This document shows, piece after piece, positions 18,195-38,905 of a DNA stretch of 64,000 nucleotides. The position numbers were made by a program, and so were the translations under genes. This DNA is from a virus. The stretch spans positions 3,669-67,668 of the IMG/VR virus record IMGVR_UViG_3300036985_008365. One strand, 5' to 3'. The first letter of the stretch is position 1; each line of letters starts with the position of its first letter. The notes beneath the pieces are model-generated. The model searched no databases. It saw only the letters and a program-made list of their open reading frames with translations, and was not told the origin of the DNA.

Positions 18195-18947
18195 ATGAAC
18201 TCAATTGAAAGAGAATTGTTTGGATTTATTGGGCAAGCCGAAGCAATGAGCGGGTTTGATTCCTATGACTCAATGGACGGAGATTCATTCGATTATTTCG
18301 ATGACTACGATTCATTTGATGATGGGTATGATACTGCATTTGATTATGCTTCAGGTAACACTCAAAACAGTCCGAATGTAAGTGACCCTTACGTTATTCA
18401 GTATGAAAACACCACGCTTGGTACTCTTACCGCTGTTATGTTTGGATACAACGACTTCTTCGGTCTTCCGCCTTTGTTCGGAAATCCCGTAGGTGTTACA
18501 GTAACCAACTTACAAGGTGGTACTTACTCACGTTTGCTTGCACAGTCGAACAACAAGTTCTTCAAGATAGGCAAATGGCGTTTTCAATCTGCTAACGCAA
18601 GTCAATTATCTCAAACTCTTACGTTGATACATTATGACGCGAATGGTAAACAATATTCAACTCCGTTGAATTTGTCAATCATGCGTGACGCTTATCAGTT
18701 CCAAAATGATATTTTGGACGTTACTAAACCCGTGACTGTGGACGGAAATACGCAGATTACGTTCCCATTGTTGGCAACAACAATCTTCGTAATCTCTATC
18801 TTCCCAATCCAAGTTATCAGTGGTAAGGCAGTTCTTAACGGTGGTACATCGTTGAACTCTGCTAAAGCACCGAGATTGTCAGGTAAAAACGTAGCGCCCG
18901 TTATCATTCAAACAACTCAAGGAGTTGCGGGAATTAGCAAGTCATAA
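18195..18947 (+). CDS. Candidate major capsid protein (single jelly-roll-like) with acidic N-terminal propeptide
   Basis: D/Y/F-rich leader, then about 150 aa of beta-strand-like sequence; long leader region and strong terminator; close to the packaging ATPase; two paralogues in the window. Confidence 0.6.
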   Translation: MNSIERELFGFIGQAEAMSGFDSYDSMDGDSFDYFDDYDSFDDGYDTAFDYASGNTQNSPNVSDPYVIQYENTTLGTLTAVMFGYNDFFGLPPLFGNPVGVTVTNLQGGTYSRLLAQSNNKFFKIGKWRFQSANASQLSQTLTLIHYDANGKQYSTPLNLSIMRDAYQFQNDILDVTKPVTVDGNTQITFPLLATTIFVISIFPIQVISGKAVLNGGTSLNSAKAPRLSGKNVAPVIIQTTQGVAGISKS

Positions 18948-18971
18948 TAGACCAACTATGTAAAGATATAC

Positions 18972-19004
18972 AAAAGGCAGAGGCAGTGTGCCTTTGCCTT
19001 TTTT
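18972..19004 (+). terminator. Intrinsic terminator
   Basis: AAAAGGCAGAGGCA-GTG-TGCCTTTGCC-TTTTTT. Confidence 0.85.
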
Positions 19005-19021
19005 AATTTAATTTTGAGACG

Positions 19022-19546
19022 ATGACCAAACAAACGAACAAACTAAAAAAGAAGATTACAATTTTAGGCTGTTTGGCTAATGAGTCAACGGGAAAAAGCC
19101 GAAAGTTGTTAAAGAAATACGGTAAAGCCGACGCCACAAATCATGGCGACTTGGAAATGAAACTTTCCGAACTTTACAAAGAGACCGACGACAAAAAAGC
19201 GTTGGAAAAAGAATTTGCGGAAATACACCCGCACAGAGATTTTATTTTAAAAAATTATACACCAAAACCTGAAGTGGTTGCGGTTCAGTCAAAGGAAGTT
19301 GAAGTTGTTGTTTCAGAGCCAATAAAAGAGGTTGCTCAAACCCCAACTGTTATTTCAACAATGCCTGAACTAAAAAGTAATTGTTCGGGAGGTGGTTGTA
19401 GTTGTGGTTGCTCGGGATTTGACGGTGCAACTAATTCTGTTTCTAACGGTCAACAAGGCTCGGGAACGAATGACAAACTAATTATTTTGGGTATGTTCGG
19501 ATTTGTTAGTATTTTAGCATTGGTACTAATTACAAAAAACAAATAA
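19022..19546 (+). CDS. Tail-anchored putative virion protein
   Basis: IHPH and CSCGCSGFDG motifs, C-terminal TM plus KNK. Confidence 0.65.
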   Translation: MTKQTNKLKKKITILGCLANESTGKSRKLLKKYGKADATNHGDLEMKLSELYKETDDKKALEKEFAEIHPHRDFILKNYTPKPEVVAVQSKEVEVVVSEPIKEVAQTPTVISTMPELKSNCSGGGCSCGCSGFDGATNSVSNGQQGSGTNDKLIILGMFGFVSILALVLITKNK

Positions 19547-19552
19547 GAATTT

Positions 19553-20023
19553 ATGCAAACAAAAACAATTTTACAAGACGCACCAATTTTAAAGCCCAAC
19601 GTTGAACACAAAAATTTTACCGAAACGGGCGAAATATATAAAAAAGGAGCGGAAGTAATAGGTGATTGGAAAGATATTAACGGGTTACGTAGAGGTAAGC
19701 CCTTCACATATAAAGTTTTTATTACTAATGAAAATGAAATTATTTACTCTAAATTCGTAGAACCAATGACAGAAGTTACAATGGGCGCTGATTCACAAGT
19801 GTCCGCCACAAAAGTCGAAATGATACCCGCAGAAAGAAAAACCACAACTATTCGAGTAGTATCGTCTGTTGCGGGTGCTCTAATCGGATATACGTTTGGA
19901 CGAAAGAAAAATTATGACCGTAATAAATCTCTAATGCTTGCGGGCGTTGGTGCTTTGGCGGGGTATTTAGTATCAAGACAGTTTACCAAGAACGACGGTA
20001 TAACTGTTCAAAAAGCAAAATAA
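19553..20023 (+). CDS. Putative virion membrane protein with C-terminal Gly-rich TM hairpin
   Basis: VAGALIGY..LAGVGALAGYL. Confidence 0.65.
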   Translation: MQTKTILQDAPILKPNVEHKNFTETGEIYKKGAEVIGDWKDINGLRRGKPFTYKVFITNENEIIYSKFVEPMTEVTMGADSQVSATKVEMIPAERKTTTIRVVSSVAGALIGYTFGRKKNYDRNKSLMLAGVGALAGYLVSRQFTKNDGITVQKAK

Positions 20024-20024
20024 A

Positions 20025-21410
20025 ATGGAGACAACAATAATTACTTTAGCACCTACGTCTTCAAACCAACCAATGACGGTTAGAACAACCGCCTCATTTG
20101 AAGAAGCGTTTGGAGAATTTTCAGAAGCCCGAGGAAAGGGACGTGCTCGACGCAAGGCTCGAAAATTGTCAAAAATCAGTGACAAACAAGAGGTAAAGCA
20201 AGCCCGTAAAGGCGGTCGTCAAGAGGCAAGAATTGCTCGACGAACAACAAGAAAAACCTCAAGACAAGCCCTACGAGATAGTCAACAAGCCTCAAGAAGT
20301 CAAAGAAGAGGTAATATTCGTGCGGAACGTCAAGAGGCGAGAGAGGCGAAACAAGCCCGAAAGGACACAAATGCAAGAGGCGAGCAAGAAAGAGAAAACT
20401 ACGCTCAAGAGCAAGAACAATATAGAGAAAGTCTTCAGCCACAAGATAACGGCGGTTCTGAAAGCCCTGAAAGCGAGGGAAATGAAATGACTGATAATGG
20501 CGGTTATGCTCCTCAAAGTTCTTCTTATCCTGAAGACGGTGCTTCAGGCACTTATTCAGAGGATGAAGATTGGAATACGCCACCTCAAGGTTACGACGAT
20601 GAGGGCTATTCAGAAGACGATTCAGAAGGCGGATACAGTGAAGAGGACTACGGAAATGAAGAGGAAGGTGATTACAACAACGCTGACGGCGATGCAACAG
20701 TAAGCCCTCGCCTTGTTCAGCACATGGCAGATATTGATGAAGAGAAACGTCAAGTATCGGATTTAATGAAACGTCGCGCTATGATGCAAAAAATTGGTAG
20801 CCCAATAACGGGAATTGATATGCAGATTGAGCGACGAATGAAAAAAGTTCAAGCGATGTATGCTAAAATTGCGGATTATTCAAACGCCGACGGTGACGCT
20901 AAAAAAGCAAAAGCCCGACGTTCGGAAATTCGAAGAGCCCAAAATAAAGCACGTGGTAGAGGCAAAGGATATAAAGCGGGTAAACCAAGAAATCCTAACG
21001 CTATGCAACAAATGCGTAACCGAAAAAGAAATTTAAATTGCGTTGACGGTGGTTCTGAAACTCCCGTTGAAGCAGAACTTAACCCACAGTTTTCGCCGAA
21101 CAGAATTGTAGTTCCCGCAAAAATGAAGTCTTCTTTTGAAGGTGAAACGGGCTACGATGATATTATGGATTCTTTGGATGATTTTGACTACGATACAATG
21201 ACAGAAAACGGAAGACCCGTAGTTTTTGACAACAACGCCGTAGTAAGTCAACCGAGTTATATGGGAGACGATTATCCTACGCCACGCGTGTACGAATTAA
21301 AGTCTAACGCTTCAGGAGAGAACAAGGTAGTTTGGAAATCAATTGCTATTGGAGTCGGTATTGGAGTATTGGCTTTGTATCTTGCAAAAAGGTATAAAAT
21401 TATAAAATAA
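20025..21410 (+). CDS. Low-complexity basic/acidic core-like protein with C-terminal TM
   Basis: Alternating R/K-rich and D/E-rich blocks bounded by SEARG, NNADG, SNADG, SSFEG and SNASG. Confidence 0.65.
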   Translation: METTIITLAPTSSNQPMTVRTTASFEEAFGEFSEARGKGRARRKARKLSKISDKQEVKQARKGGRQEARIARRTTRKTSRQALRDSQQASRSQRRGNIRAERQEAREAKQARKDTNARGEQERENYAQEQEQYRESLQPQDNGGSESPESEGNEMTDNGGYAPQSSSYPEDGASGTYSEDEDWNTPPQGYDDEGYSEDDSEGGYSEEDYGNEEEGDYNNADGDATVSPRLVQHMADIDEEKRQVSDLMKRRAMMQKIGSPITGIDMQIERRMKKVQAMYAKIADYSNADGDAKKAKARRSEIRRAQNKARGRGKGYKAGKPRNPNAMQQMRNRKRNLNCVDGGSETPVEAELNPQFSPNRIVVPAKMKSSFEGETGYDDIMDSLDDFDYDTMTENGRPVVFDNNAVVSQPSYMGDDYPTPRVYELKSNASGENKVVWKSIAIGVGIGVLALYLAKRYKIIK

Positions 21411-21421
21411 AGGTTCAACTG

Positions 21422-21455
21422 AAAACTCGCGGAAGGACTTCTTTTGCGAGTTTTT
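21422..21455 (+). terminator. Intrinsic terminator
   Basis: AAAACTCGCGGAAG..CTTTTGCGAGTTTTT hairpin plus T tract. Confidence 0.75.
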
Positions 21456-21470
21456 GTTTATTTGAAATAA

Positions 21471-22130
21471 ATGCGAGACTTATATTTAACAGCGACAAAT
21501 TTCAATGGGCACGTTATGCAACGTGTGGGTCAAACTATTGTAGAAGATAGACAAGCGATTATAGACCTTTTGGAAAGCGCTGAAATAGATATGAACCCAA
21601 ACGCGTCTGACCTTGAAATTTCGGACGCATATTTATATTATCTGCCTGAAAACGATAGTTTAAAATATGGCACGGCTTATCTGATTGAACTTAAAGACAA
21701 AAGTAGTTTTGACGGCTCTGTCAGCAACGAGTCAATCTATAAAACCTACGACAAACTTTATGATTATTGGGACGTCGAAGACCCCGATGACTATGAAGAT
21801 TACGCCGACGAAGAAGAGGACAAAAGTAATGTGCTCGGTCTTGTAGGGGGTATTGTATCGGGAGGCTTGGGTGTTGCCAACAAAGTCATTGAAGGTAAGC
21901 AAAAGCAAAAATACGGTGCTTTGGACTACGCTCAAAAACAAGCGGAGGCTCAACAAGCGCTTCTTTCAGGCATCATGGCTCAAAAACAAGCGCAACTTCA
22001 AGCGCAACAAAAAGCCGATGAGTTGAAAGCAAAGAAAAGAAAAACCACTATTATAGTGACGGCTTCAGTAATTGGAGTTCTTGCAATAATCACAGCGGTA
22101 GTTTATTTACGTTCAAAAGCAAAAACATGA
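21471..22130 (+). CDS. Tail-anchored putative virion protein
   Basis: Acidic N-terminal half, SSFDG, Q-rich coil, C-terminal TM. Confidence 0.65.
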   Translation: MRDLYLTATNFNGHVMQRVGQTIVEDRQAIIDLLESAEIDMNPNASDLEISDAYLYYLPENDSLKYGTAYLIELKDKSSFDGSVSNESIYKTYDKLYDYWDVEDPDDYEDYADEEEDKSNVLGLVGGIVSGGLGVANKVIEGKQKQKYGALDYAQKQAEAQQALLSGIMAQKQAQLQAQQKADELKAKKRKTTIIVTASVIGVLAIITAVVYLRSKAKT

Positions 22131-22231
22131 GCAAGTTTTTAGGATATTTAGCCATTGCGAGCGTTGTATGGTTGACATATAAGCAGTTCCAAAAGGCAAA
22201 GAATGAAGACACGCCCAAAATAAAGAAATAG
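22127..22231 (+). CDS. 34-aa membrane peptide (not in ORF track)
   Basis: ATGA overlap; MSKFLGYLAIASVVWLTYKQFQKAKNEDTPKIKK. Confidence 0.65.
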   Translation: MSKFLGYLAIASVVWLTYKQFQKAKNEDTPKIKK

Positions 22232-22236
22232 TCTGT

Positions 22237-22761
22237 ATGAAAAAGACGTATATCATATCAACCACGGTAAAAGTTCCTTTTGTCGTTAATAGTGGGCAAG
22301 CGCATAGACCACCTCAAATCAAGTTTCGAACTTTCAAAAAGGGAGAAATGGTTCAAGGAGAGTTAAAGCACTCAAATAACAAACCCTCATTTGTTTTAGT
22401 GGGCAAAATGGGTGTTATTCCAATTGAATGTGTTCAAGAGGTAAATAGCACTCCAATTGGAGTGCCAACGACGTCTAATGCAAGTGGAGAGACAGCCGTA
22501 GAAATAGCGGACGAAAAAAACAAAGAGGTGATTGTTCAAAACCCTAAAATTCGTTATGCAGATGCTTTTTTAATTGGAGCGTTAGTAGGCTTTTTGGGGG
22601 TTCATTTTGCACAGAAAAAGGGATATATTCCTGACGAAGACAAAAAGTACAAATTATATGGCGCGTTAGGCGTTGGATTATTGGGTGCATATCTTGTATA
22701 TCGCAGTCAGTCTTCAAAAAAAACAGTTAAACCCGTTGTTAAAATAGCAAAAAAAGAATAA
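22237..22761 (+). CDS. Putative virion membrane protein, architecture like 19553-20023
   Basis: SH3-like N-terminus, SNASG, C-terminal TM hairpin. Confidence 0.6.
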   Translation: MKKTYIISTTVKVPFVVNSGQAHRPPQIKFRTFKKGEMVQGELKHSNNKPSFVLVGKMGVIPIECVQEVNSTPIGVPTTSNASGETAVEIADEKNKEVIVQNPKIRYADAFLIGALVGFLGVHFAQKKGYIPDEDKKYKLYGALGVGLLGAYLVYRSQSSKKTVKPVVKIAKKE

Positions 22762-22762
22762 T

Positions 22763-23155
22763 ATGTTAGTAATGACTAAAGCACCAATTATCGAGGAAGT
22801 TTCCTCGGCAAATGGTAGAAAAGGAAAAAGAGCAAAATCAGGAAAAGTTTCAGATTCTTTGAAAAAAGGATATGCTCGTCTGAAAGAAGCGGGAGGAGTT
22901 CCCGTAATTGAAAATCTTCTTGGAATAGGTGCGGTTGGTGCGAATATGCCACCCGTTGACGGAAACTTGCTTATAACTGACCCAAATGCCGACAAAAAAC
23001 CTGACGCCGACGCGGACAAAAAACCTGAAGGTATGAGCAAAACGACTAAAATCGTCTTAATATCTGTAGGTGTTTTGGCTGTAGCGGGGATTGCTTACTA
23101 TTTGTATGCACGTAGTAAAGGCGGAAAAGTTTCTTCAGCAACAATTAAGGCGTAA
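22763..23155 (+). CDS. Tail-anchored protein with MxVxT.xPII leader
   Basis: MLVMTKAPIIEEVSSANG then RKGKRAK; GMSKTTKIVLISVG TM. Confidence 0.65.
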   Translation: MLVMTKAPIIEEVSSANGRKGKRAKSGKVSDSLKKGYARLKEAGGVPVIENLLGIGAVGANMPPVDGNLLITDPNADKKPDADADKKPEGMSKTTKIVLISVGVLAVAGIAYYLYARSKGGKVSSATIKA

Positions 23156-23161
23156 GAACCT

Positions 23162-23947
23162 ATGGAACAAAATTGGGAGACAGAGAATCGAGCGATTTCT
23201 TTAGTTGTAGAAATTAAGTGCGAAGGTAAATGCCAATTTAGGGTTGTTGCCTCTGACTCAAAGCCCCGTTCAAAATATGCGGATAGGACTATTGAAGTTG
23301 ACGGCTTCAGAAGTATCTTTTTGTCATTTCCCGTAACGCCAAAAGCCTTAAAAATTAGAGTAGAACCCGTAAAGGGCACGCCGACAAATAATTACATTGT
23401 CAATATTAAAGAAAAGGAACTTACGGCGTATGAAATACACGTTGACGAAGCGACTCAAAAATTCTTAAATTTGGCGGTCTTCTTTTCACAAGTTGCGGGC
23501 TTCGAGCAAGCCAATAAAGACGGACGTATTTTCAAAACGGTTGACAATAGTTATAGAATAAAATACTTTCCCGTTATAGTTGATTTTGCGTCTAACACGG
23601 TACTTAACACTCCCGCTCGAATTGGACACCAAACGGGTACAATAGAGGTTAGCAAGCGGTCATTTGACGGATACACAGTAGCGATGAGAATGATGATATT
23701 GCTTCATGAATATTCGCACGTGTTCAAAAACCCAAAAATGGGATTGGACATTAGCAACGAAATAGGCGCGGACATCAACGCTTTATACGTATATTTGGGA
23801 TTAGGATTTTCAAAAGTTGACGCCGTCTATGTTTACGCCAACGTATTTTTAAAAGCGCAGTCAAAAAGCAATTTGAAGCGTATGCGAAAAATAATGGAAT
23901 ACATTAAGCGTTTTGAGAATCAGGAATTTGCTAAAAAATTAAAATAA
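23162..23947 (+). CDS. Zincin metallopeptidase (HExxH), candidate maturation protease
   Basis: ILLHEYSH (HEYSH at 23705-23719) and downstream NEIGADINA third-ligand motif. Confidence 0.7.
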   Translation: MEQNWETENRAISLVVEIKCEGKCQFRVVASDSKPRSKYADRTIEVDGFRSIFLSFPVTPKALKIRVEPVKGTPTNNYIVNIKEKELTAYEIHVDEATQKFLNLAVFFSQVAGFEQANKDGRIFKTVDNSYRIKYFPVIVDFASNTVLNTPARIGHQTGTIEVSKRSFDGYTVAMRMMILLHEYSHVFKNPKMGLDISNEIGADINALYVYLGLGFSKVDAVYVYANVFLKAQSKSNLKRMRKIMEYIKRFENQEFAKKLK

Positions 23948-30715: not shown

Positions 30716-30728
30716 CAAGTTAAAAAAA

Positions 30729-31253: not shown

Positions 31254-31257
31254 AATT

Positions 31258-31383
31258 ATGAAAAAAGGAAATTTAAGTAATTTGGGCGCGTGGCGTGCTC
31301 ATCTTGACAAATGCAGAAAAGCAAACCCAAGTAAGTCACTGAAAGAGTGCATGGTCATCGCTAAAAAAACTTACAAAAAATAA
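31258..31383 (+). CDS. 41-aa basic peptide, putative DNA-condensing core protein (not in ORF track)
   Basis: MKKGNLSNLGAWRAHLDKCRKANPSKSLKECMVIAKKTYKK fills the intergenic gap. Confidence 0.7.
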   Translation: MKKGNLSNLGAWRAHLDKCRKANPSKSLKECMVIAKKTYKK

Positions 31384-31395
31384 CCAAAGACGAAA

Positions 31396-32223: not shown

Positions 32224-32244
32224 TACACAATAAAATAAAAAATT

Positions 32245-32553
32245 ATGGAAAATTTATTCACGACAGTAGACAAAGAGGGTGAAATACTTCGAACAACGGG
32301 CACTTATGTTATTGGACGCTCAACTAACAAAGAAGTTGTGTCCATATATTCTAATTCTTATAAAGATGGCGTAGCGGAAAACACGGGTGTATTTCAGCAA
32401 AACGACATAATTTATATATACCCAAATGGTTACGTAGGTGGTCAAACGAAAGAGATAGGTAAAGTTTTATTAAATGACAAAGCGATTGCCGACGCTCTTC
32501 AAGCAAAAGAAAATGCGATTAGTTCAAGACTAACCCCACCAAAACCCCAATAA
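32245..32553 (+). CDS. Hypothetical protein
   Basis: 102-aa ORF within the operon. Confidence 0.55.
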   Translation: MENLFTTVDKEGEILRTTGTYVIGRSTNKEVVSIYSNSYKDGVAENTGVFQQNDIIYIYPNGYVGGQTKEIGKVLLNDKAIADALQAKENAISSRLTPPKPQ

Positions 32554-32697
32554 TAAATGATTTCAGGGGTTACTTTTGTGCAAGAGAAGTTAATATAGGA
32601 CATTGCAAAATTTGAAGTAGCAAAAGCAACAGAGTAAAAATCAAGGCACATAATTTTTAACTTGTTAAAAAAAGTGCGTTTTATTGTTTTTTTTTCA

Positions 32698-32705
32698 TAG
32701 ATTTG
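32698..32705 (+). promoter_or_regulatory. Bacteroidota -7 promoter element
   Basis: TAGATTTG upstream of 32786; 14-bp palindrome at 32656-32669. Confidence 0.5.
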
Positions 32706-32785
32706 TTATCACATTCAAGAATTTAGATTCGCTATGAAGCGGGTAAAAAAAAGTAATCAATTTAATAATTTAAAATAAATAAACA

Positions 32786-33406
32786 ATGGCAACAATTTCA
32801 AACACAACTTACAAACTTTGCGCGGTAACGTTCCCCGCACTTTCAGCAACATTTGACCTTTCCCCTCTTGACTTGAATGGAAATGTTTTTGAAAAAATCT
32901 ATCTTGATGTAGACGCTACGGGTGGAGACATTACAATCAATTTACCTGATATTTCGGTATTTGGTAGAATTTTTAACTTCGAATTGGTAGTTAACCGAAT
33001 TGACACATCGCTTAATGCGGTAAAAATTGTATCCTACACGGATTTGGTAATTATACCGAATGTTGTTCAATTTATTGGTTCGGCTGAATTGATTCAAATT
33101 GGCACAGCGTATGAAACTGTAACATTGAGCCCAACAACGGAATTTGGTTGGTCAGCGTCACAAACATCGGGTGCAACCTCTTCACTTCCCGCGCTTGTTG
33201 GTGGATTAGCCCAAGTAACTCTTGCTCTTGCTCAATACGTTGATTCAGCAGTTGGAACAACTTACATTGTTCAGAATTACGACGCTACAACAGACGCTTG
33301 TACAATCGTTAAATTATCTCTTGCAAACGGCGATTATCAAGATTGGTTTGTATTGGCTACTGACAACGCTCTTTCTTCAGGCGCAATTGGTCAAAACCCT
33401 ATCTAA
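32786..33406 (+). CDS. Beta-sandwich structural protein (DxTxGxIxIxLP family)
   Basis: PLDLNGNVF..LDVDATGGDITINLP. Confidence 0.6.
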   Translation: MATISNTTYKLCAVTFPALSATFDLSPLDLNGNVFEKIYLDVDATGGDITINLPDISVFGRIFNFELVVNRIDTSLNAVKIVSYTDLVIIPNVVQFIGSAELIQIGTAYETVTLSPTTEFGWSASQTSGATSSLPALVGGLAQVTLALAQYVDSAVGTTYIVQNYDATTDACTIVKLSLANGDYQDWFVLATDNALSSGAIGQNPI

Positions 33407-33411
33407 TAAAG

Positions 33412-33522
33412 ATGGCAAAACTCGACAATCAAACTAAATTAATGCTGATAGGATATGCGGGCATAGCACTCGCATACACTATTCTTTTTATTGTTAAGTA
33501 TAAGAGTGTCACAAAGTCATAA
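33412..33522 (+). CDS. 36-aa membrane peptide (not in ORF track)
   Basis: MAKLDNQTKLMLIGYAGIALAYTILFIVKYKSVTKS. Confidence 0.65.
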   Translation: MAKLDNQTKLMLIGYAGIALAYTILFIVKYKSVTKS

Positions 33523-33551
33523 AGAATTGAACAATCTAAAAACAAAACAAA

Positions 33552-33659
33552 ATGTTAGATATTAAAGACCCAAACAAATTTTTAGGTGGACAGAATGTTC
33601 ACAATTTAATCATTATTGGTATGTTAGGTTTCCTGATTTACAAAGCGGTAAAGAAGTAA
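33552..33659 (+). CDS. 35-aa membrane peptide, copy 1
   Basis: MLDIKDPNKFLGGQNVHNLIIIGMLGFLIYKAVKK. Confidence 0.85.
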   Translation: MLDIKDPNKFLGGQNVHNLIIIGMLGFLIYKAVKK

Positions 33660-33691
33660 GCAATTAACAACCAAAAAAAAAGCAAATTAAA

Positions 33692-34048
33692 ATGGCAATT
33701 ATCGCAATTCAAGGGGTATCTTACAAGGCACTTGCTCCACTTGCTCCACAAGACTACGCCCTATTTCCTTTTGACCTAAACGGAAACATTTTTGGATTGG
33801 TTACAATCAACGTAGATACTACGGGTGGTAAGGTGAAAATCGCTTTACCTCAAATTTCAACTCTGAAAGATAATTACAATTGTAAAATTGTAATAGTGCG
33901 CACAGCGGGGACAAACGCAGTTACCGTATCAACGAGTGGTACAGATATAATTGGTACTGCGTCTGCGGTTCAATTAAACTTTAACAACCAATCAATTGAA
34001 GTTACGCCCGTAGAGGCAATCAATTGGTACGGAGTAATTACACCGTAA
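33692..34048 (+). CDS. Beta-sandwich structural protein, paralogue of 32786
   Basis: PFDLNGNIF..INVDTTGGKVKIALP. Confidence 0.6.
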   Translation: MAIIAIQGVSYKALAPLAPQDYALFPFDLNGNIFGLVTINVDTTGGKVKIALPQISTLKDNYNCKIVIVRTAGTNAVTVSTSGTDIIGTASAVQLNFNNQSIEVTPVEAINWYGVITP

Positions 34049-34059
34049 AACAAAACAAA

Positions 34060-34167
34060 ATGTTAGACATTAAAGACCCAAACAAATTTCTTGGAGGACA
34101 AAACGTCCACAACCTAATCATTATTGGAATGTTAGGATTTCTAATTTACAAATCAGTTAAAAAATAA
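34060..34167 (+). CDS. 35-aa membrane peptide, copy 2
   Basis: MLDIKDPNKFLGGQNVHNLIIIGMLGFLIYKSVKK. Confidence 0.85.
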   Translation: MLDIKDPNKFLGGQNVHNLIIIGMLGFLIYKSVKK

Positions 34168-34171
34168 AATC

Positions 34172-34390
34172 ATGGCGGGAATTATCAAAAATTCAGTAAC
34201 AAAAGTGACAAACAACCCACTTTTTGCAGTTGCGGGAGCAGTTGCGGGGTTTTACGGTGCTAAAAAAATGAACGTAACCAATGTATACTACAAAATAGGA
34301 TTGGTAGTATTGGGCGGTGTAGTAGGAGCGTTTGCTTCTTCATACGTTAAATCAAGTATGTCAGAGCCGAAAAAAACCTCTGTAAAGTAA
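34172..34390 (+). CDS. Small Gly-rich TM hairpin protein
   Basis: AVAGAVAGFYG..VLGGVVGAF. Confidence 0.65.
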   Translation: MAGIIKNSVTKVTNNPLFAVAGAVAGFYGAKKMNVTNVYYKIGLVVLGGVVGAFASSYVKSSMSEPKKTSVK

Positions 34391-34396
34391 TTTCTT

Positions 34397-35332
34397 ATGA
34401 ACGATAGAACAAAGAAAGTCCTTATTTGGGGCTCGGTAATTACGTTGTTAGGCGTTAGCGGATATTTGGGCTATCGTTTTTTCAAGAATCGTAAAACAGC
34501 GAGAGCCGAAGAGGAAGCGAAGAAACTTGCTGAAGCACAAGCACTTATTGCTCAACAAAACCAAAACCAAAACCAAGGTGGTGGAGGCAACCAAGGTGGC
34601 GGTGGCGGAGCGGTTGTTGACCGTCCTTCTGAAATTGACACTACTGACAAATTAAAGGCATTTCAAAAATGGGTAATAAACACCAAAGGCGACAAAACAA
34701 TACTTGGTAAAGGTGGTGACAGTGGTTTCGGTGACGATGGAATTTGGGGTGCTAACAAGGGTGGCAAGTCTAAAGTGGCGTGGGATAAATACGGTGAGGA
34801 GTTTAAAAAGACTTTGAAGCCCGTCGACACACCAACAAAACCCGTTATAAGCGAAAGTTTGCAAAAAGACATTGACACTGTAGTTGCAATGGGAGTAGGA
34901 GAGAAGGCAAAGCGTGCTTATCTTGAGGGTGGAATAGACGCTCAATCGAAAAAAGATTGGGTATCCTCTTGGGCAAGAGCCTTGAGAGCAAATAAAGCCG
35001 ACCCCGCAAAAGGCACAACATTCGTTTGGAATACGGGCGGTCAAGATTGGGGTCTTTATGAGGCTTACAGCGGTACGAAAGTTTTAGGATTCAACCCTAC
35101 GGACAGAAAACCAAAACCACTTTCGGAGGCTTACTTTTATGAAAAACCTGAAGTTAGTAGTTTTAGTTATGTTCAGGCTACGGGTAACAACGCGGGCACT
35201 GTTAAAGGTTATCAATACAACAACAAAACGAAAAAACTTTGGTTGTACATACCGATTCCTTTGGACAGTAAATTAAGTGACGCTTGGGTTATGGGTACAA
35301 AATGGATACTCGCAAACGAAGTTAAATTTTAG
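34397..35332 (+). CDS. Membrane-anchored protein with peptidoglycan-binding-like motif
   Basis: N-terminal TM; LKAFQKWV..DDGIWGA. Confidence 0.6.
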   Translation: MNDRTKKVLIWGSVITLLGVSGYLGYRFFKNRKTARAEEEAKKLAEAQALIAQQNQNQNQGGGGNQGGGGGAVVDRPSEIDTTDKLKAFQKWVINTKGDKTILGKGGDSGFGDDGIWGANKGGKSKVAWDKYGEEFKKTLKPVDTPTKPVISESLQKDIDTVVAMGVGEKAKRAYLEGGIDAQSKKDWVSSWARALRANKADPAKGTTFVWNTGGQDWGLYEAYSGTKVLGFNPTDRKPKPLSEAYFYEKPEVSSFSYVQATGNNAGTVKGYQYNNKTKKLWLYIPIPLDSKLSDAWVMGTKWILANEVKF

Positions 35333-35335
35333 TGT

Positions 35336-35599
35336 ATGATTTACAAAATATTCTCGCTCTCATATAAGCCCGAATTTGAATATTACAACAAAAACGGTGT
35401 TTGGTATAAGCGCTTAAAAGCGAACCCAACATCGGGTTGGAAAAGAGGTGATGATAACGCACAAAAAGTGCTCAATGAACACTTCAAAAAACAACGACGT
35501 TTCCTTGGTTGGAATTACAACATTGGAGTAAAATTAGTTGCTTTATCAGCGGTAGTTGTAGGCGGGTATTTTGCTTACAAATTTGTGACTAAAAAATAA
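35336..35599 (+). CDS. Tail-anchored small protein
   Basis: C-terminal TM plus KK. Confidence 0.6.
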   Translation: MIYKIFSLSYKPEFEYYNKNGVWYKRLKANPTSGWKRGDDNAQKVLNEHFKKQRRFLGWNYNIGVKLVALSAVVVGGYFAYKFVTKK

Positions 35600-35603
35600 G
35601 GCA

Positions 35604-36341
35604 TTGGGTTTAAAAATCGACATAGTAAAAGCGGTCGCTTTGAGTGGGTATGAGGGCAAGTTCCGAGACTCACTTAAAAGCGTGCTGAAATACATGGAGA
35701 AAGACCCTAAAATTAACAGCATACAGCGAGGGGCTTATTTATTGGCAACAGCCAAAATAGAAGCGGACTACTCTTTACAGCGTTGGGAGGCGGATTACAC
35801 TTGTAAATTACAAGGTTTACCCTATCAAGACAAGCCATGTGAAACGGCTCTTAACTATTACCGCTCTACAGACGGTAAAAAAAATTATTATACCCTTGGC
35901 TTGGACAGTCGAGGGCTACCTTATTTTGGGAGAGGATTGATTCAACTCACGGGTAAGGCAAATTATGAAACTTATGGCAAACTCATAGGGGTTGATTTGG
36001 TAAAAAATCCCGAAGTTGCTTTAGAGCCTGAAACGTCGTACAAAATAGCGTCAACGTATATGGCAAACCGAAAATACCAAGGTAAGACAACTTTTGAATG
36101 GGCTGATTTAGGGAATTTGACATACGCTCGTAAAACAATTAACGCCTCGTCAAAAGGACTTGATGACATACAGCGGACTTTTAATATGTGGGTCAATATT
36201 TTAGGACAAACAGCAAAAGTGGTAACGTCAACAGACGAAGCCCAAAAAAAAAAAATTAGTATAGGCGCTGTAATATCATCATTAATGGTAACAGTCAGTG
36301 TTTATGTTTTAATAACAAACTTCAAAGCGTTCAAGAAATGA
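35604..36341 (+). CDS. GH19 lysozyme-like muramidase with C-terminal TM
   Basis: LLATAKIE; YFGRGLIQLTGKANY; DLVKNPE; ARKTIN. Confidence 0.85.
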   Translation: MGLKIDIVKAVALSGYEGKFRDSLKSVLKYMEKDPKINSIQRGAYLLATAKIEADYSLQRWEADYTCKLQGLPYQDKPCETALNYYRSTDGKKNYYTLGLDSRGLPYFGRGLIQLTGKANYETYGKLIGVDLVKNPEVALEPETSYKIASTYMANRKYQGKTTFEWADLGNLTYARKTINASSKGLDDIQRTFNMWVNILGQTAKVVTSTDEAQKKKISIGAVISSLMVTVSVYVLITNFKAFKK

Positions 36342-36979
36342 GACGAGATACAGAAATGGGAAGAACAGAGAATTTTATCGTTGCTAACGGTATGAGCCAA
36401 CTGTATACGGGTGGTCAAGACGTCAGCCCATACTCGGCTTTTGACGACGTTCTTGGAAATGGTGACAATGACATTGAGTTCAGCGATTTGGCTACGGGCG
36501 CAATGCGTCGCTCACGCCGTAAATTTAAACAAGGTAGTGGTGACGGTGGCGCTGTTTCCTCTCGAAATAGAAAGAAACTAAAAAAAGTTGCGGGTTATTA
36601 CCCTCCCGTTGCGGTGGCAAGGGCTGTAAAGAAAAATCAGCAAAACCGCCAATCAGGACAAAGCGGTGAAAAAGGTAAATCGGGTGGATTTGTGGATAGA
36701 GCAAAAGACAGTATCAAGGGCTACCGAACAAGAAAAACAGAAGAGAACCAAAAAAACGCCGAACAGCAACAGAAAATAATTGACCAAGTTACTAAAAGCA
36801 GTCCGACAGTCGAACAGTTAAATGCCTTAATGGCGAATCCAACAGCGGGCGTTAATACAACCCCTCAAAAAACCCCAATGAGCAAAGGACTTAAAATTGG
36901 TCTTATTGTCGGGGGAATAGTTGTAGCGGGAATAATTGGGTTTGTAGTGTATAAAAAAATTAAAAACAAAGCAAAATGA
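36338..36979 (+). CDS. Tail-anchored basic core-like protein
   Basis: Acidic leader, then RRSRRKFK; PMSKGLKIGLIVGG TM. Confidence 0.65.
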   Translation: MRRDTEMGRTENFIVANGMSQLYTGGQDVSPYSAFDDVLGNGDNDIEFSDLATGAMRRSRRKFKQGSGDGGAVSSRNRKKLKKVAGYYPPVAVARAVKKNQQNRQSGQSGEKGKSGGFVDRAKDSIKGYRTRKTEENQKNAEQQQKIIDQVTKSSPTVEQLNALMANPTAGVNTTPQKTPMSKGLKIGLIVGGIVVAGIIGFVVYKKIKNKAK

Positions 36980-37932
36980 AAATATTTACAAGTCGACCTA
37001 TAATCGAGGATAAAAGCAATTGCTGTGGTATGTCAAACGCTTCGGGTGAAGGGTTAAATCTTAAAGCATTACTACCTAATGTGACTACTTTTACAGATAA
37101 TACGGAAGGAACGCCTATTGCACCACCCGCACCAAAAGGTCAATCAAACAGAGAAATGTTTGGGGACTATTTGTCAACTCAAAAAGACGCCCGAAAAGAC
37201 AGCCGTGGAAAAGCAGTTAGTGATATTTTATCGGGTTCAGAAAGCCGTAGAGACACACGCAGAGGTGGTAGAGAGGTTTCTCGGGCTTCTCGTTTAGAAA
37301 GCAAAGACAAACGTGTTTCAGAACGAATTGCTAATCGTCAAGCGCGGGCTAAAAGACGCACTGACCGTAAGGCAAAACGTAATGCTAAAAAATTGATTTT
37401 AGTTAAAACTCCAAGAACCGCCGACCCAAAATTCTTTTTTCCTTTACAAAAATTACGTTTGTCAAAAAGAAAGAAAGGTAAGTACGAAAAAACGTATGCT
37501 GATGGAACAATTGGCGAAGTAGACCAAAAAAACACTGTTACAGATTCAACGGGCGCGGTCTATGACAAGAAGGAAGTAAGCAACGCTACGGGAATACCAA
37601 CTCCCGCAATTACGCCGACAACTCTTACTCAAGTCGAAACGGTTACAGTTCAAGACCCAACAACGGGAGGAAACACAACCGCTGTAGAAGTTAAAGATGA
37701 AAATGTTTCAGGCGCAAGTGACGGTAACGCTTATCTTGAATCTGATGTTCAAGGCTCTCAAGAGAAAGTTGAAAACGTAGCAGACGACGACAAGAAAAAA
37801 GAAGAAGAGGTCAAAGAAGGGTGGAGCACTACTACAAAAGTTATTGTGGGGGTAAGCGCACTTGCTGTTGTAGGTCTTATTATTTACGCTGTAGTGAAAG
37901 GTAAAAGCGGTTCTATAGCACCTAAAATATAA
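36976..37932 (+). CDS. Tail-anchored Arg-rich protein with MKIFTSRPII leader
   Basis: SNASG; R/K-rich block; GWSTTTKVIVG TM. Confidence 0.65.
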   Translation: MKIFTSRPIIEDKSNCCGMSNASGEGLNLKALLPNVTTFTDNTEGTPIAPPAPKGQSNREMFGDYLSTQKDARKDSRGKAVSDILSGSESRRDTRRGGREVSRASRLESKDKRVSERIANRQARAKRRTDRKAKRNAKKLILVKTPRTADPKFFFPLQKLRLSKRKKGKYEKTYADGTIGEVDQKNTVTDSTGAVYDKKEVSNATGIPTPAITPTTLTQVETVTVQDPTTGGNTTAVEVKDENVSGASDGNAYLESDVQGSQEKVENVADDDKKKEEEVKEGWSTTTKVIVGVSALAVVGLIIYAVVKGKSGSIAPKI

Positions 37933-37939
37933 ACCAAAA

Positions 37940-38410
37940 ATGAAAGTAATTACTCGAAATAAAATATTGGTTAACCCTGATATGAACTATTCGCGACTTG
38001 ACGGAAAATCTCCAACAGCCGAAATTTTGGCAATGCAAAAACTAATAAACTCTAAAGGGGAAAAATTAGTAGATGAGACGGGAGTATTTGACGCAAAAAC
38101 AAGTGAAGTATACAACAAGTACAAAACGCGTCTTGACAGAGAATTTCTTGAAATGGGCTATGAGCCTATAAAGTTACAAACCAAACCTTTAAATGTAATT
38201 GAAATTCCTAAAACTCCCGCTCAAATTGTTCCAACTTTTTTTAAGGCAGATTTTAAAACCTCAAACGAGAAAACAAGTTGGTGGTCAAAGAGAACAAAAA
38301 CCCAAAAAGGTTTGATTATTGGCGGTGCGGTAGCGGTTACGGGATTGACGGTTTGGCTTATAGTAAGAAGTGTAAAGCGCTCTTCTGCGACAACAATTAA
38401 AACAGCATAA
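37940..38410 (+). CDS. Tail-anchored protein with PG-binding-like motif
   Basis: MKVIT leader, YSRLDG, MQKLIN..TGVFDAKT, WWSKRTKTQK TM. Confidence 0.6.
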   Translation: MKVITRNKILVNPDMNYSRLDGKSPTAEILAMQKLINSKGEKLVDETGVFDAKTSEVYNKYKTRLDREFLEMGYEPIKLQTKPLNVIEIPKTPAQIVPTFFKADFKTSNEKTSWWSKRTKTQKGLIIGGAVAVTGLTVWLIVRSVKRSSATTIKTA

Positions 38411-38413
38411 GCC

Positions 38414-38905
38414 ATGAAGGTCATCACTACAAATCCAATTATAGTAAATCCTGAAAAAAGTTACTCATACTTGGACGGGTATTCGGCTTCGGATGAAATC
38501 AAGGCGTTTCAAAAATGGGTATGGTACACTAAAGGGGACAAGTCCCTAAAAACTTCGAAAGCCCCCGACGGGGTTGACGGTATTTGGGGAGCAAAGACGG
38601 GTAGCGCTTGGTCAAAGTATTCAGCAGAATTTCAGAAAACACTACCAATTTTAGGAGTTCAAAACATAACAGCGGAAGCAGAAAAATTAAAAGCCGAGGC
38701 TGAAGCCGAAGCGTTGAGATTAAAAGCAATCGCGGACGCGGACGCTTTAAAAGTAAAAGACGGAGAATACGGTTCAGGGAAACCTTCTTGGTGGAAAAAC
38801 CGAACTAAAACTCAAAAACGATTAATAATCGGCGGAGCGGTAGTAGTTACGGGACTGACTATTTACCTCATTGTTAGAAGTGCAAAAAACTCTAAAGCAA
38901 AATAA
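38414..38905 (+). CDS. Tail-anchored paralogue with PG-binding-like motif
   Basis: MKVIT leader, YSYLDG, IKAFQKWV..VDGIWGAKT, WWKNRTKTQK TM. Confidence 0.6.
   Translation: MKVITTNPIIVNPEKSYSYLDGYSASDEIKAFQKWVWYTKGDKSLKTSKAPDGVDGIWGAKTGSAWSKYSAEFQKTLPILGVQNITAEAEKLKAEAEAEALRLKAIADADALKVKDGEYGSGKPSWWKNRTKTQKRLIIGGAVVVTGLTIYLIVRSAKNSKAK

Follow-up and report, generated by a model that had tools for sequence, protein, structure and literature searches.

Do the late proteins of an uncultured phage share a maturation site, and which enzyme would act on it? The question arises from a pentapeptide, S-x-[AFL]-[DSNE]-G, that an initial annotation had noticed in at least ten structural open reading frames (ORFs) and had read as a virion-wide protease site. 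The window analysed here is a stretch of 64,000 nucleotides (positions 3,669 to 67,668 of IMG/VR record IMGVR_UViG_3300036985_008365); ORFs are named by their first position in it. It belongs to a phage genome of at least 67.7 kb, the host of which is probably a member of the Bacteroidota. No protein of the genome matched a known phage structural family; in Pfam and PHROG searches most proteins had no recognisable family, and HK97-fold capsid, portal, terminase and prohead-protease families gave no match. That the late ORFs (18-39 kb) encode virion proteins is suggested by where the genes lie, by a jelly-roll model and by membrane anchors at the C-termini. At least 11 late proteins are tail-anchored, two paralogous jelly-roll proteins are encoded in the genome, and the virion probably has an internal membrane. 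A P-loop ATPase upstream has a weak HerA/DUF87 match (E = 0.0044, below cut-off). Coordinates are collected in Table 1.

Table 1. Motif-bearing ORFs, motif sites and candidate peptidase in the window.
Feature	Position	Strand	Remarks
Jelly-roll capsid-protein candidate, 250 aa	18195..18947	+	core preceded by acidic disordered N-terminal extension (residues 1-63)
DYASG in ORF 18195	18342..18356	+	8 residues ahead of conserved core start S-D-P-Y-V-I
Tail-anchored protein, 174 aa	19022..19546	+	two sites in Cys-rich linker ahead of C-terminal membrane segment
SNCSG in ORF 19022	19376-19390	+	from translation
SGFDG in ORF 19022	19412-19426	+	from translation
Polyprotein-like tail-anchored protein, 461 aa	20025..21410	+	basic and acidic blocks alternate
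SEARG in ORF 20025	20121-20135	+	S-x-Phi-x-G in 10/10 orthologues
NNADG in ORF 20025	20676-20690	+	S-x-Phi-x-G in 4/10 orthologues
SNADG in ORF 20025	20880-20894	+	S-x-Phi-x-G in 4/10 orthologues
SSFEG in ORF 20025	21129-21143	+	S-x-Phi-x-G in 3/10 orthologues
SNASG in ORF 20025	21303-21317	+	S-x-Phi-x-G in 7/10 orthologues
SSFDG	21702..21716	+	ORF 21471-22130, 219 aa, tail-anchored
SNASG	22474..22488	+	ORF 22237-22761, 174 aa; follows soluble N-terminal domain, precedes two membrane segments
SSANG	22802..22816	+	after N-terminal leader of ORF 22763-23155 (130 aa, tail-anchored); then basic block
Candidate maturation peptidase, 261 aa	23162..23947	+	N-terminal beta-sandwich and zincin-like domain
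HEYSH in ORF 23162	23705-23719	+	HExxH signature
Second jelly-roll protein, 410 aa	23947..25179	+	acidic block, SGLDG, Lys-rich block, C-terminal domain paralogous to 18195
SGLDG in ORF 23947	24172-24186	+	D-[IVL]-D-[FY]-S-x-Phi-x-G in 12/12 orthologues
Tail-anchored protein, 318 aa	36976..37932	+	leader M-K-I-F-T-S-R-P-I-I, then SNCCG and SNASG (37033-37047)
Tail-anchored protein, 156 aa	37940..38410	+	leader, then SRLDG (37991-38005)
Paralogue of 37940, 163 aa	38414..38905	+	leader M-K-V-I-T-T-N-P-I-I, then SYLDG (38465-38479)

Recurrence of the motif in late proteins

All 13 pentapeptides listed initially were found in their ORFs, with coordinates verified by translation. NNADG (ORF 20025) and DYASG (ORF 18195) fall outside the strict pattern because position 1 is not Ser, and one strict match, SLANG in ORF 32786, was absent from that list. 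The pattern does occur in at least ten ORFs, with 12 matches in 10 of the 25 plus-strand late proteins (18-39 kb). Its significance was evaluated with 2000 within-protein shuffles, which gave a mean of 1.91 and a maximum of 8 matches, so that none attained 12. Shuffling confined to blocks of 10-30 residues, which holds local composition, gave means of 1.8-2.0, and again 0 of 2000 attained 12. Strict matches were lacking in the 16 plus-strand proteins at 1-18 kb (1.08 expected) and the 10 at 39-45 kb (0.39 expected), and the 48 minus-strand proteins held two, in two proteins (1.00 expected, P = 0.27). The anticipated enrichment over shuffled and other-arm proteins is thus present, at 12 matches versus about 2 expected and 0 in the other 26 plus-arm proteins. 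In addition, the hexapeptide SNASGE is common to three different proteins (20025, 22237 and 36976); in 300 shuffles no hexamer occurred in as many as three.

The pattern was defined post hoc, and motif discovery within the genome recovered it only under masking. With a crude Gibbs sampler transmembrane-like motifs emerged first; once hydrophobic segments (14% of residues) had been masked, the best width-6 motif was, by a narrow margin, [K/Y]-S-[N/S]-x-[S/D]-G. Exact-residue scans for pairs and triples, however, did not single the motif out. An unbiased three-residue scan of this genome placed no pattern of the motif in the top 25, and the enrichment of the bare S-x3-G pair was only modest (two large beta-helix proteins dropped: z = 2.8, rank 33 of 2185; kept: z = 1.6, rank 207 of 2259). 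The loose form S-x-Phi-x-G occurred 29 times versus 17-18 expected (1.6-1.7 times enriched, P about 0.005).

Conservation in related loci

Conservation in homologues was borne out, the motif being kept in orthologues at 25-70% identity. Across 14 related IMG/VR loci, which include two near-duplicate pairs, the capsid candidate and the genes downstream of it gave 86 strict matches versus 11.9 expected, and the upstream genes of the same loci 9 versus 5.3. Among family-weighted sites, 81% retained S, 95% retained G, 82% had A or F at position 3 and 63% had F, M, Y or K at position -1. Position 4 is not limited to D, S, N or E, since orthologues often have R, K, T, G, A or Q there, and alignment suggests the refined consensus [F/M/Y/K]-S-x-[A/F]-x-G with position 4 free. 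Four sites were kept in 10-12 of 10-12 orthologues, within poorly conserved linkers; at three of these, S and G identity was 0.92-1.0 versus flank means of 0.17-0.50. Several other sites were kept in part, in 3-7 of 10-11 orthologues.

SNASG of ORF 22237 was retained as S-x-Phi-x-G in 11 of 12 orthologues (identity S 1.00, G 0.92, flank mean 0.17). At SSFDG of ORF 21471 the full form occurred in 4 of 11, around a core [N/G/S]-[F/A]-[D/S]-G (identity G 0.91, Phi 0.73, flank mean 0.32). For ORF 19022 an aligned S-x-Phi-x-G was seen in 5 of 11 orthologues per site, and many orthologues carry 2-4 tandem copies. SSANG of ORF 22763 had no motif in the aligned columns of its three recognised orthologues; one of the three (L006) has SNATG at residue 12. 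Several proteins share an N-terminal leader, M-[K/E]-[I/V]-[I/T]-T-x-x-P-[I/V]-[I/L]; in 11 of the 17 leader-bearing proteins from the window and its relatives the motif comes after it, in the first 60 residues. Cys-rich runs stand beside two motif sites.

Settings of the motif sites

Motif sites were found where a disordered acidic extension gives way to a jelly-roll core, where the conserved leader ends, where a soluble domain adjoins membrane anchors and, in some cases, at an acidic-to-basic switch. That several sites mark a charge switch had been proposed initially. Net charge over the 25 residues before versus after the motif confirmed this at, for example, ORF 23947 (-13 to +8), ORF 22763 (-1 to +8) and SNADG of ORF 20025 (+2 to +9), but 9 of the 16 sites examined showed no switch. 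The values were -2 to +10 at SEARG of ORF 20025, -12 to +3 at SNVLG of ORF 21471 and -10 to -2 in ORF 18195.

The AlphaFold2 (AF2) model of the 18195 product has a beta core at residues 64-208, with pLDDT <50 at residues 1-63 and 209-250. The top Foldseek rows in the PDB were picorna-like capsid proteins (weak jelly-roll matches, E = 6e-4 to 5e-3), and the VIA-wide comparison gave weak Z scores of 5-6.5, including capsid chains of PR772, phiCjT23 and FLiP. Metagenomic homologues number 670, and the 120 listed carry either no name or the label 'hypothetical protein'. Among these 120, S-x-Phi-x-G occurs in the extension of 116, at 6-8 residues before the core in 111 of those, and three of the four exceptions have D-Y-A-[ST]-G like the protein in the window. 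The aligned columns read S-[YFN]-A-x-G in 12 of 12 orthologues, all 12 having S where the window has D. A 33%-identical relative (L025) has a protein of 196 residues that starts 15 residues before the core and has neither extension nor motif; because this protein lacks it, the extension is, as far as sequence comparison indicates, dispensable for the fold. The second jelly-roll protein was related to the first by hhalign (18195 residues 109-204 versus 23947 residues 289-393; probability 90.5%, E = 1.4e-6), and its Atlas feature matches to CRESS capsid clusters (0.85-0.88) are a lead only.

It had also been suggested that one protease may serve this motif and YADGG-type motifs. The [Y/F]-A-x-G-G and S-x-[A/F]-x-G sets have the A-x-G core alone in common and occupy separate genome regions; the capsid-candidate site has the form [S/D]-[Y/F]-A-x-G, and one relative carries hybrid motifs such as S-Y-A-K-G-G. 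Large multi-module proteins contain 37 [Y/F]-A-x-G-G separators, and an ART-PolyVal domain is encoded in the genome.

A candidate peptidase in the late module

The product of ORF 23162 is the only recognisable peptidase (Pfam, PHROGs, NCBIfam). No cysteine or serine protease family was detected among the 99 proteins of the window and 2 others of the genome, and searches of Pfam and PHROGs found no cysteine proteases of the adenovirus or poxvirus families. Residues H182, E183, H186, E200 and D204 do not vary across 13 close and 30 diverse sequences, and HExxH is present in all 131 full-length family representatives among the best 150 of 612. A homologue occurs in 14 of 14 related loci extending far enough, and the protein is better conserved (49-63% identity) than most putative substrates. 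In its AF2 model (pLDDT 92.6) the C-terminal domain aligned with the M48 peptidase BepA (6sar_A; Z = 7.8, rmsd 4.3, 119 aligned, 16% identity) and the putative Zn peptidase 3c37_B (Z = 6.7), so that the predicted fold appears weakly M48-like. Foldseek returned no match at E = 0.001 or below, and no Pfam, PHROG or NCBIfam family attained threshold; one relative had a sub-threshold Peptidase_M56 match (E = 0.21).

Interpretation

Our leading reading, tentative at a probability of about 0.45, is that the motif is a maturation cleavage site of late proteins, with the zincin-like 23162 product as the most likely enzyme. The two jelly-roll precursors would carry acidic N-terminal extensions and the small tail-anchored precursors short conserved leaders, and the 20025 product would be made as a multi-block polyprotein. 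The peptidase, encoded in the same module directly upstream of one putative substrate (23947), would cut at or beside the motif during or after assembly; the cuts would remove extensions and leaders and would detach from their membrane anchors both soluble domains and basic blocks that probably bind DNA. The motif, its late-arm enrichment, its conservation, its place at junctions and a zincin-like protein within the module partly support the protease-site proposal; the cut, its position, the enzyme and the virion location are what we infer. Against cleavage count the post hoc pattern with its unremarkable exact-residue scans, the partial conservation of several sites, the middling fold matches of the 23162 product (Z <8) and the fact that, to our knowledge, zinc peptidases are not usual capsid-maturation enzymes in phages. 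Moreover, a conserved junction motif is equally expected for a binding site. Capsid and tail-anchored proteins may dock through it onto a common assembly partner, nothing being cut; candidates for that partner would include the beta-sandwich of the 23162 product, a scaffold, a chaperone and the jelly-roll shell. This reading we regard as doubtful but worth serious consideration. Free positions 2 and 4, disordered linkers and copy-number turnover among orthologues are typical of binding motifs, and the bearers appear, from their C-terminal anchors, to share a destination. Cutting, however, better suits the tandem copies exactly at charge-block boundaries of polyprotein-like 20025 and the motif at the end of removable-looking extensions, missing in a distant relative, and the module encodes a conserved catalytic metal site.

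The sites may also be cut by a host protease or an unrecognised viral one, such as the DUF2272 protein at 11459-12154 (match E = 3e-14), a family that we presume may be papain-like, or a domain concealed within the large [Y/F]-A-x-G-G proteins. Most genome proteins lack a recognisable family, and in other jelly-roll viruses Gly-containing virion-wide sites are cut by cysteine proteases; we nevertheless think this unlikely, given the failure to find cysteine or serine protease families among the proteins searched and a zincin candidate within the module that is more conserved than most putative substrates. Modification of the conserved Ser (glycosylation, phosphorylation or acylation), with neither cutting nor docking, would agree with its rank as second most conserved position (0.81), with exposed linkers and with the neighbouring Cys-rich runs. 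It is improbable in view of the more conserved Gly (0.95), the replacement of Ser by Asp with [Y/F]-A-x-G kept in the window's capsid candidate and 3 of 120 listed homologues, and the absence of any transferase or kinase from the late module in a family search. The Bacteroidota O-glycosylation sequon is D-[S/T]-[A/I/L/V/M/T], and the motif lies outside it because the residue before Ser is rarely Asp. Finally, linkers rich in S, N, G, D and A, combined with a post hoc pattern, could produce a compositional artefact, as the non-significant exact-residue scans and modest enrichment of the loose form would allow. This is already disfavoured and highly improbable: local-composition shuffles gave about 2 matches versus 12, orthologues retain the aligned motif positions well beyond the level of the flanks, SNASGE recurs in three proteins, and the motif keeps a fixed distance from the core in listed capsid-candidate homologues.

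Comparison with known systems

Returning to cleavage by the zincin-like product, a precedent is the proposal that polyvalent proteins, carried by phages and conjugative elements, have zincin-like domains that process proteins packaged in phage heads (Iyer et al. 2017, PMC5512222); the part of that article considered here names no consensus cleavage site for them. The present genome resembles that system in its ART-PolyVal domain and in its large multi-module proteins with 37 separators. It differs in that its peptidase stands alone, as a 261-residue protein that begins with a beta-sandwich and scores below Pfam thresholds, and in that capsid and membrane proteins would be the substrates. HExxH and a downstream Glu are shared with M48/M56 peptidases (BepA/YfgC, HtpX, BlaR1), but the Z range allows a claim of common arrangement only, and the 23162 product has no sequence-family membership, no membrane segments and another domain architecture.

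Helvetiavirae, such as P23-77 and HCIV-1, have an internal membrane and build their capsid from two vertical single jelly-roll proteins (compare the abstract of PMC6414509). Two paralogous jelly-roll proteins, many late-module membrane proteins and an upstream P-loop ATPase are reminiscent of them, but this genome, at 67.7 kb or more, exceeds theirs several-fold, and the capsid role and vertical orientation are putative. No sequence similarity to Helvetiavirae was detected, and we know of no protease processing in that group.

In T4, gp21 is a serine prohead protease with an L/I-x-E site in an HK97-fold head, and internal proteins have capsid-targeting leaders. Here too unrelated putative virion proteins share a short N-terminal leader ending in a consensus site (11 of 17 leader proteins), but the putative substrates are mostly membrane-anchored and no HK97-fold match was found. 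Poxvirus I7L cuts A-G|x, African swine fever virus pS273R cuts G-G|x, and the poxvirus G1 metalloprotease takes part in core maturation. Polyprotein-like core precursors cut at Gly-containing sites in membrane-containing virions would be a likeness by analogy, but these are eukaryotic viruses with other protease families and consensus sites, and no homology to them was found here. Adenain acts at (M/I/L)-x-G-G|x and (M/I/L)-x-G-x|G in pVI, pVII, pVIII, pX, pIIIa and pTP. It is a cysteine protease, whereas the candidate here is a zincin and the host bacterial, and the present consensus opens with Ser (position 1, Gly being position 5) and lacks a second Gly. By analogy, the two systems would nonetheless share a short, virion-wide, Gly-containing consensus with a hydrophobic residue two to three positions ahead of Gly, a jelly-roll capsid, the removal of propeptides and the release of small basic core proteins.

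A serine-glycine motif recurs in late proteins

The initial annotation had proposed the pentapeptide pattern S-x-[AFL]-[DSNE]-G (hereafter the strict pattern) as a maturation motif of structural proteins. Within a set of 99 non-overlapping, ATG-initiated ORFs of at least 50 residues, named here by their start positions, translation placed every listed pentapeptide in the ORF assigned to it. Eleven of the 13 listed sites fit the pattern, the other two, NNADG and DYASG, lacking the Ser, and one strict match had been missed (SLANG in 32786). Among the 25 plus-strand proteins encoded between 18 and 39 kb (the late proteins), 10 contained a total of 12 strict matches, compared with a mean of 1.9 and a maximum of 8 in 2000 within-protein shuffles, an enrichment in the late arm. 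No match was found in the 16 plus-strand proteins before 18 kb or in the 10 after 39 kb, and the 48 minus-strand proteins had two (1.0 expected). Linker composition does not explain the enrichment, since shuffles confined to blocks of 10-30 residues still gave a mean of about 2, with 0 of 2000 reaching 12. The hexamer SNASGE was shared by three otherwise dissimilar proteins, which no hexamer achieved in 300 shuffles.

The pattern was chosen post hoc, after inspection of the proteins. A pair scan found mild enrichment of the bare S-x3-G pair, and an unbiased scan of exact three-residue patterns had no pattern of this motif in its top 25. A first Gibbs run without masking returned membrane-helix motifs first and did not recover the pentapeptide motif; with hydrophobic segments masked, the best width-6 motif was [K/Y]-S-[N/S]-x-[S/D]-G, by a small margin. 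By the counts against shuffles, here and in related loci, the consensus recurs in several late proteins of putative virion role and is uncommon among the remaining proteins. We regard the case for the motif from this genome alone as moderate.

The motif is conserved in homologues

Using the capsid candidate (the 18195 product, 250 residues, putative jelly-roll) as query, 15 IMG/VR loci with conserved gene order were found (55-69% identity), on contigs of 48-84 kb and one of 146 kb. Most putative substrates are 23-54% identical in related loci. The 14 loci holding the capsid candidate, two near-duplicate pairs included, were counted for enrichment: the capsid candidate and the downstream plus-strand genes had 86 strict matches vs 11.9 expected, and the upstream genes 9 vs 5.3 expected. 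In orthologue alignments, from which the duplicate loci L003 and L009 were left out, the predicted conservation was found at four sites (Table), which keep the loose form S-x-Phi-x-G in 10-12 of 10-12 orthologues. At three of these (20025, 22237 and 23947) the identity of the Ser and Gly columns to the window residue was 0.92-1.0, compared with averages of 0.17-0.50 for the 30 flanking residues; at the fourth (18195), the window has Asp where 12 of 12 orthologues have Ser. Eight further sites were kept in 2-7 of 10-11 orthologues, and SSANG of 22763 in none of three. Extra or shifted copies of the motif were common in the orthologues.

A wider search with the capsid candidate returned 670 homologues, all metagenomic, and none of the 120 listed carried a name beyond 'hypothetical protein'. 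Among the best 120, the N-terminal extension contained S-x-Phi-x-G in 116, with the consensus M-S-[Y/F]-A-[S/T/G/A]-G, and the motif lay 6-8 residues ahead of the start of the conserved core in 111. Three of the four exceptions had Asp for Ser, as in the window, and one had Ala for Gly.

A consensus over eight site families of equal weight had F, M, Y or K (0.63 together) at position -1, S (0.81) at position 1, mostly N, G, S or E at position 2, A (0.46) or F (0.36) at position 3, any residue at position 4 and G (0.95) at position 5. Judged by this family-weighted consensus, the motif first described is real, its restriction at position 4 is wrong and its residue set at position 3 is too narrow; we therefore use the refined form [F/M/Y/K]-S-x-[A/F]-x-G. 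The motif observation is thereby confirmed and sharpened. The consensus is kept in homologues at domain boundaries, fully at four sites and in part at the others.

Coordinates of the features discussed in the text (window positions; single numbers are ORF starts)
Feature	Position	Description	Source
Candidate peptidase	23162-23947	261 residues; stop overlaps the start of 23947	
Best-kept motif site	18195, residue 50		Orthologue alignments
Best-kept motif site	20025, residue 33		Orthologue alignments
Best-kept motif site	22237, residue 80		Orthologue alignments
Best-kept motif site	23947, residue 76		Orthologue alignments
P-loop ATPase	15232-16056	53-74% identity in relatives, highly conserved	
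Holin	39122	Lysis gene	Pfam/PHROGs
M15 peptidase with peptidoglycan-binding domain	44362	Lysis gene	Pfam/PHROGs
GH19 domain	35694-36341	Lysis gene, lysozyme-like, C-terminal hydrophobic segment	Pfam/PHROGs
ART-PolyVal and NUDIX	9801		Pfam/PHROGs
ParB, HNH and other early genes	Minus arm		Pfam/PHROGs
[Y/F]-A-x-G-G copies	623-11237	ORF 623, 11; ORF 4343, 6; ORF 6664, 8; ORF 9801, 1	
[Y/F]-A-x-G-G copies	Two ORFs left of the window	11	

The motif lies at junctions in capsid candidates and membrane proteins

In the 18195 product the motif ends a disordered acidic extension (pLDDT below 50 for residues 1-63 of the structure model), whose net charge has a median of -13 in 120 homologues. The beta core that follows matched jelly-roll capsid proteins weakly. 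A 33%-identical relative of 196 residues (locus L025, 9968-10558), encoded directly after the ATPase gene on a contig that ends just downstream, begins 15 residues before the core and has neither extension nor motif; by this comparison the acidic extension is an add-on, apparently dispensable for the fold. The second putative jelly-roll protein, 23947 (410 residues), is ordered as an acidic block, the sequence D-I-D-F-S-x-Phi-x-G and a Lys-rich block, the charge changing from -13 to +8. Its C-terminal domain is paralogous to the 18195 core (hhalign probability 90.5%, E = 1.4e-6) and had Atlas features of 0.85-0.88, which we treat as a lead only; a PDB sequence-profile search with the 23947 family gave nothing meaningful. 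An acidic extension ending in the motif precedes the paralogous beta domain in both 18195-18947 and 23947-25179. These data suggest two candidate capsid proteins and a capsid of the two-single-jelly-roll type, which would be an unusual design at a genome size of at least 67.7 kb.

Other late proteins carry the motif between different kinds of segment. In 20025, basic and acidic blocks alternate with five or six copies of the motif between them and a membrane anchor at the end, and in 22237 the motif lies between a conserved soluble domain and two membrane segments. A leader, M-[K/E]-[I/V]-[I/T]-T-x-x-P-[I/V]-[I/L], opens 22763, 36976, 37940 (deviating at the Pro) and 38414 as well as 14 proteins of relatives; of 17 proteins with the leader pattern, 11 had the motif in their first 60 residues and 15 a C-terminal membrane-like segment. 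A sortase- or exosortase-type C-terminal sorting signal, composed of motif, membrane helix and basic tail, would fit 20025 and 19022 and was rejected because in 22763, 36976, 37940 and 38414 the motif is N-terminal and far from the anchor. Single C-terminal hydrophobic segments occur in at least 11 late proteins (19022-22761, 22763-23155, 35336-38905 and 40578-41075), the GH19 protein among them, a hint that the virion may have an internal membrane. Cys-rich runs were seen immediately next to the motif in two proteins, C-S-G-G-G-C-S-C-G-C before SGFDG (window 19376-19426) and SNCCG before SNASG (window 37015-37047), and also in orthologues; they might serve metal binding, disulfides or acylation.

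A candidate metallopeptidase is encoded among the late genes

HExxH was found in two window proteins only, 23162 and 23947. The second of these, HEKIH at residue 333 of 23947, lies outside the invariant columns of its family and was rejected as a candidate. The 23162 product is 49-63% identical in related loci and is present in all 14 that reach far enough. H182, E183, H186, E200 and D204 did not vary among 13 close sequences or among 30 diverse ones (26-55% identity). A profile search gathered 612 representative clusters of the family, and HExxH was present in 131 of 131 members of at least 235 residues among the best 150 of these. With peptidase alignment A1 as query the same contigs were retrieved as before, plus one; the diverse alignment A4 contained no stretch of sufficient conservation for such a scan, and the distant members P0257 and P0135 as single queries returned no IMG/VR locus.

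The structure model of the 23162 product (pLDDT 92.6) opens with a beta-sandwich at residues 1-87, GOLD/CBM-like with Z 8.0, which is followed by a helical-rich domain. In this domain HExxH lies on helix 173-188, and E200 and D204, either of which might be the third metal ligand, lie in the next helix (200-213). This domain matched the M48 peptidase BepA (Z 7.8, 119 aligned residues, rmsd 4.3; VIA-wide) and the putative zinc peptidase 3c37_B (Z 6.7, 123 aligned residues, rmsd 4.9; VIA-wide), and because of these Z values we call the modelled protein zincin-like at most. Foldseek against the PDB produced weak M60 rows (probability 0.33-0.51) and none with an E of 0.001 or less, and a PDB sequence-profile search gave nothing relevant. 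The window protein had no Pfam, PHROG or NCBIfam family match; 20 relatives had sub-threshold matches only, to PhageMetallopep (E = 0.024 and 0.041) and Peptidase_M56 (E = 0.21). A complex prediction with residues 25-70 of the capsid candidate, run without controls, gave ipSAE values of 0.00 and 0.04 and a mark of 0.32 and counts neither way.

A second motif set shares A-x-G with the late motif

The motif [Y/F]-A-x-G-G occurs in 37 copies in six large proteins of the same genome, two of them left of the window (positions 47-4281 of the source record, G000; locus L041). V, I, F or L usually follows two residues later, one copy falls between ART and NUDIX, and in the unbiased scan of triples A-x-G-G reached a z of 15. 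The motif appears to separate modules of polyprotein-like proteins that are probably packaged. The two sets occupy different parts of the genome and have A-x-G in common; the late motif lacks the second Gly, and in [Y/F]-A-x-G-G the aromatic residue is seldom preceded by Ser. The capsid-candidate site reads [S/D]-[Y/F]-A-x-G. In the late module of a relative (locus L044; G001:C1:1-20000), hybrids of both sets were observed, namely repeated K-G-S-[T/N]-[V/I]-x-G-G and one S-S-Y-A-K-G-G. As had been suggested, it is possible that one enzyme would serve both motifs.

Genome context and host

The window covers positions 3669-67668 of one 67,668-base virus record. The first ORF lies open at the record's 5' edge and no terminal repeats, direct or inverted, were found at the record ends (contig ends of G000, window 63800-64000 included); the genome is therefore probably incomplete or permuted. 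The plus strand is coding as far as about 45 kb, the minus strand from there on. Pfam and PHROGs recognised no capsid, portal, terminase, tail or prohead-protease family in the window ORFs, most ORFs at 18195-35332 had no match whatever in either, and neither DNA nor protein searches of a phage collection returned a match to region 18000-30000, to the capsid candidate or to the ATPase. The loop G-x-x-G-x-G-K-T of the ATPase is invariant; the protein matched DUF87 (HerA) at E = 0.0044 with 17.6 bits, below the cut-off of 23.2, and had no match in a PDB sequence-profile search. From its sequence it is possibly a packaging ATPase of FtsK/HerA type. Two large beta-helix-like paralogues (25176-30232; 894 and 790 residues) have an N-terminal domain of about 85 residues in common with the smaller proteins 31396-32223, 32786-33406 and 33692-34048; 31396 matched 25176 at E = 2e-10 (BLASTP), and the likeness of 32786 and 33692 was judged by eye. 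A role in receptor binding, with a shared anchor in the virion, is possible for all of these.

Prokaryotic genome bins contained 10 related loci, six in Bacteroidota bins (two of these Saprospiraceae) and the remainder in unrelated bins, which we take as binning noise. Together with the peptidoglycan-directed lysis genes, the Bacteroidota bins suggest a phage of Bacteroidota, the bins pointing to Saprospiraceae or Flavobacteriia as hosts. A literature search at the level of titles and abstracts found no description of this phage group, and the lineage appears to be undescribed.

Discussion

The best available reading of the motif is the one first proposed, a proteolytic maturation site, to which we add the 23162 product as the enzyme that would cut it; we give this a probability of roughly 0.45. 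It is pointed to by the position of the motif at junctions of unrelated late proteins, by acidic extensions and leaders that look removable, by the polyprotein-like chain, by a conserved candidate metallopeptidase in the same module and by the absence of the extension from a distant relative. The scissile bond might, as speculation, lie after the Gly or before the A/F, a cut before such a residue being common among zinc peptidases.

A docking signal would be conserved equally well; the removable-looking segments argue for cleavage, and we consider docking unlikely while giving it serious weight. Cleavage by an enzyme other than 23162 we hold to be improbable. Apart from the M15 lysis protein, neither the window nor the two large ORFs to its left showed a further peptidase family, and no adenain/ULP-like C5/C57/C63 cysteine protease was recognisable among the 99 window and two further genome proteins, though divergent members may have escaped detection. 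Modification of the motif Ser would agree with the high Ser frequency at position 1 and fits poorly with the Asp substitutions, which makes it more improbable still. Chance, for which the post hoc choice of the pattern speaks, is by now very unlikely.

Joined to the other observations, proteolytic maturation by 23162 leads to a broader picture that we offer tentatively and think rather unlikely to hold in every part. It would describe an environmentally widespread, undescribed lineage of Bacteroidota phages with large genomes (about 60-85 kb), in which two paralogous capsid proteins of single jelly-roll fold surround an internal membrane and an adenovirus- or asfarvirus-like maturation evolved independently. 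A zinc metallopeptidase dedicated to this maturation and belonging to a new family would recognise [F/M/Y/K]-S-x-[A/F]-x-G, strip acidic propeptides off both capsid proteins, take targeting leaders off tail-anchored membrane proteins and divide a polyprotein into small basic peptides that condense the genome; the 37 [Y/F]-A-x-G-G separators may be cut by it as well.

If cleavage is real, a simple sequence rule would predict mature virion components across a large, wholly uncultured phage group (670 capsid-candidate clusters and 612 peptidase representatives, all metagenomic), and the enzyme would found a new peptidase family with testable specificity. Even without any cut, the motif would be a conserved assembly signal linking otherwise unannotatable proteins.

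Tailed phages are well known to mature by proteolysis at a consensus shared across the virion, using serine proteases, and so are eukaryotic jelly-roll or membrane-containing DNA viruses, using cysteine proteases. To our knowledge such maturation has been described neither for jelly-roll phages that contain a membrane nor with a zincin as the enzyme, and a search of titles and abstracts found no phage zincin acting as a maturation protease. For packaged proteins, autoprocessing by zincins is proposed in the polyvalent-protein paper (PMC5512222), in passages that name no cleavage site. Maturation by 23162 would give bacterial viruses an independent counterpart of adenovirus core processing. The architecture may resemble that of Helvetiavirae-like viruses, which have two single jelly-roll proteins, an internal membrane and a packaging ATPase of FtsK/HerA type; here there are two paralogous candidates, with the jelly-roll fold of 18195 weakly matched, and an ATPase with an invariant P-loop and a DUF87 match below cut-off.
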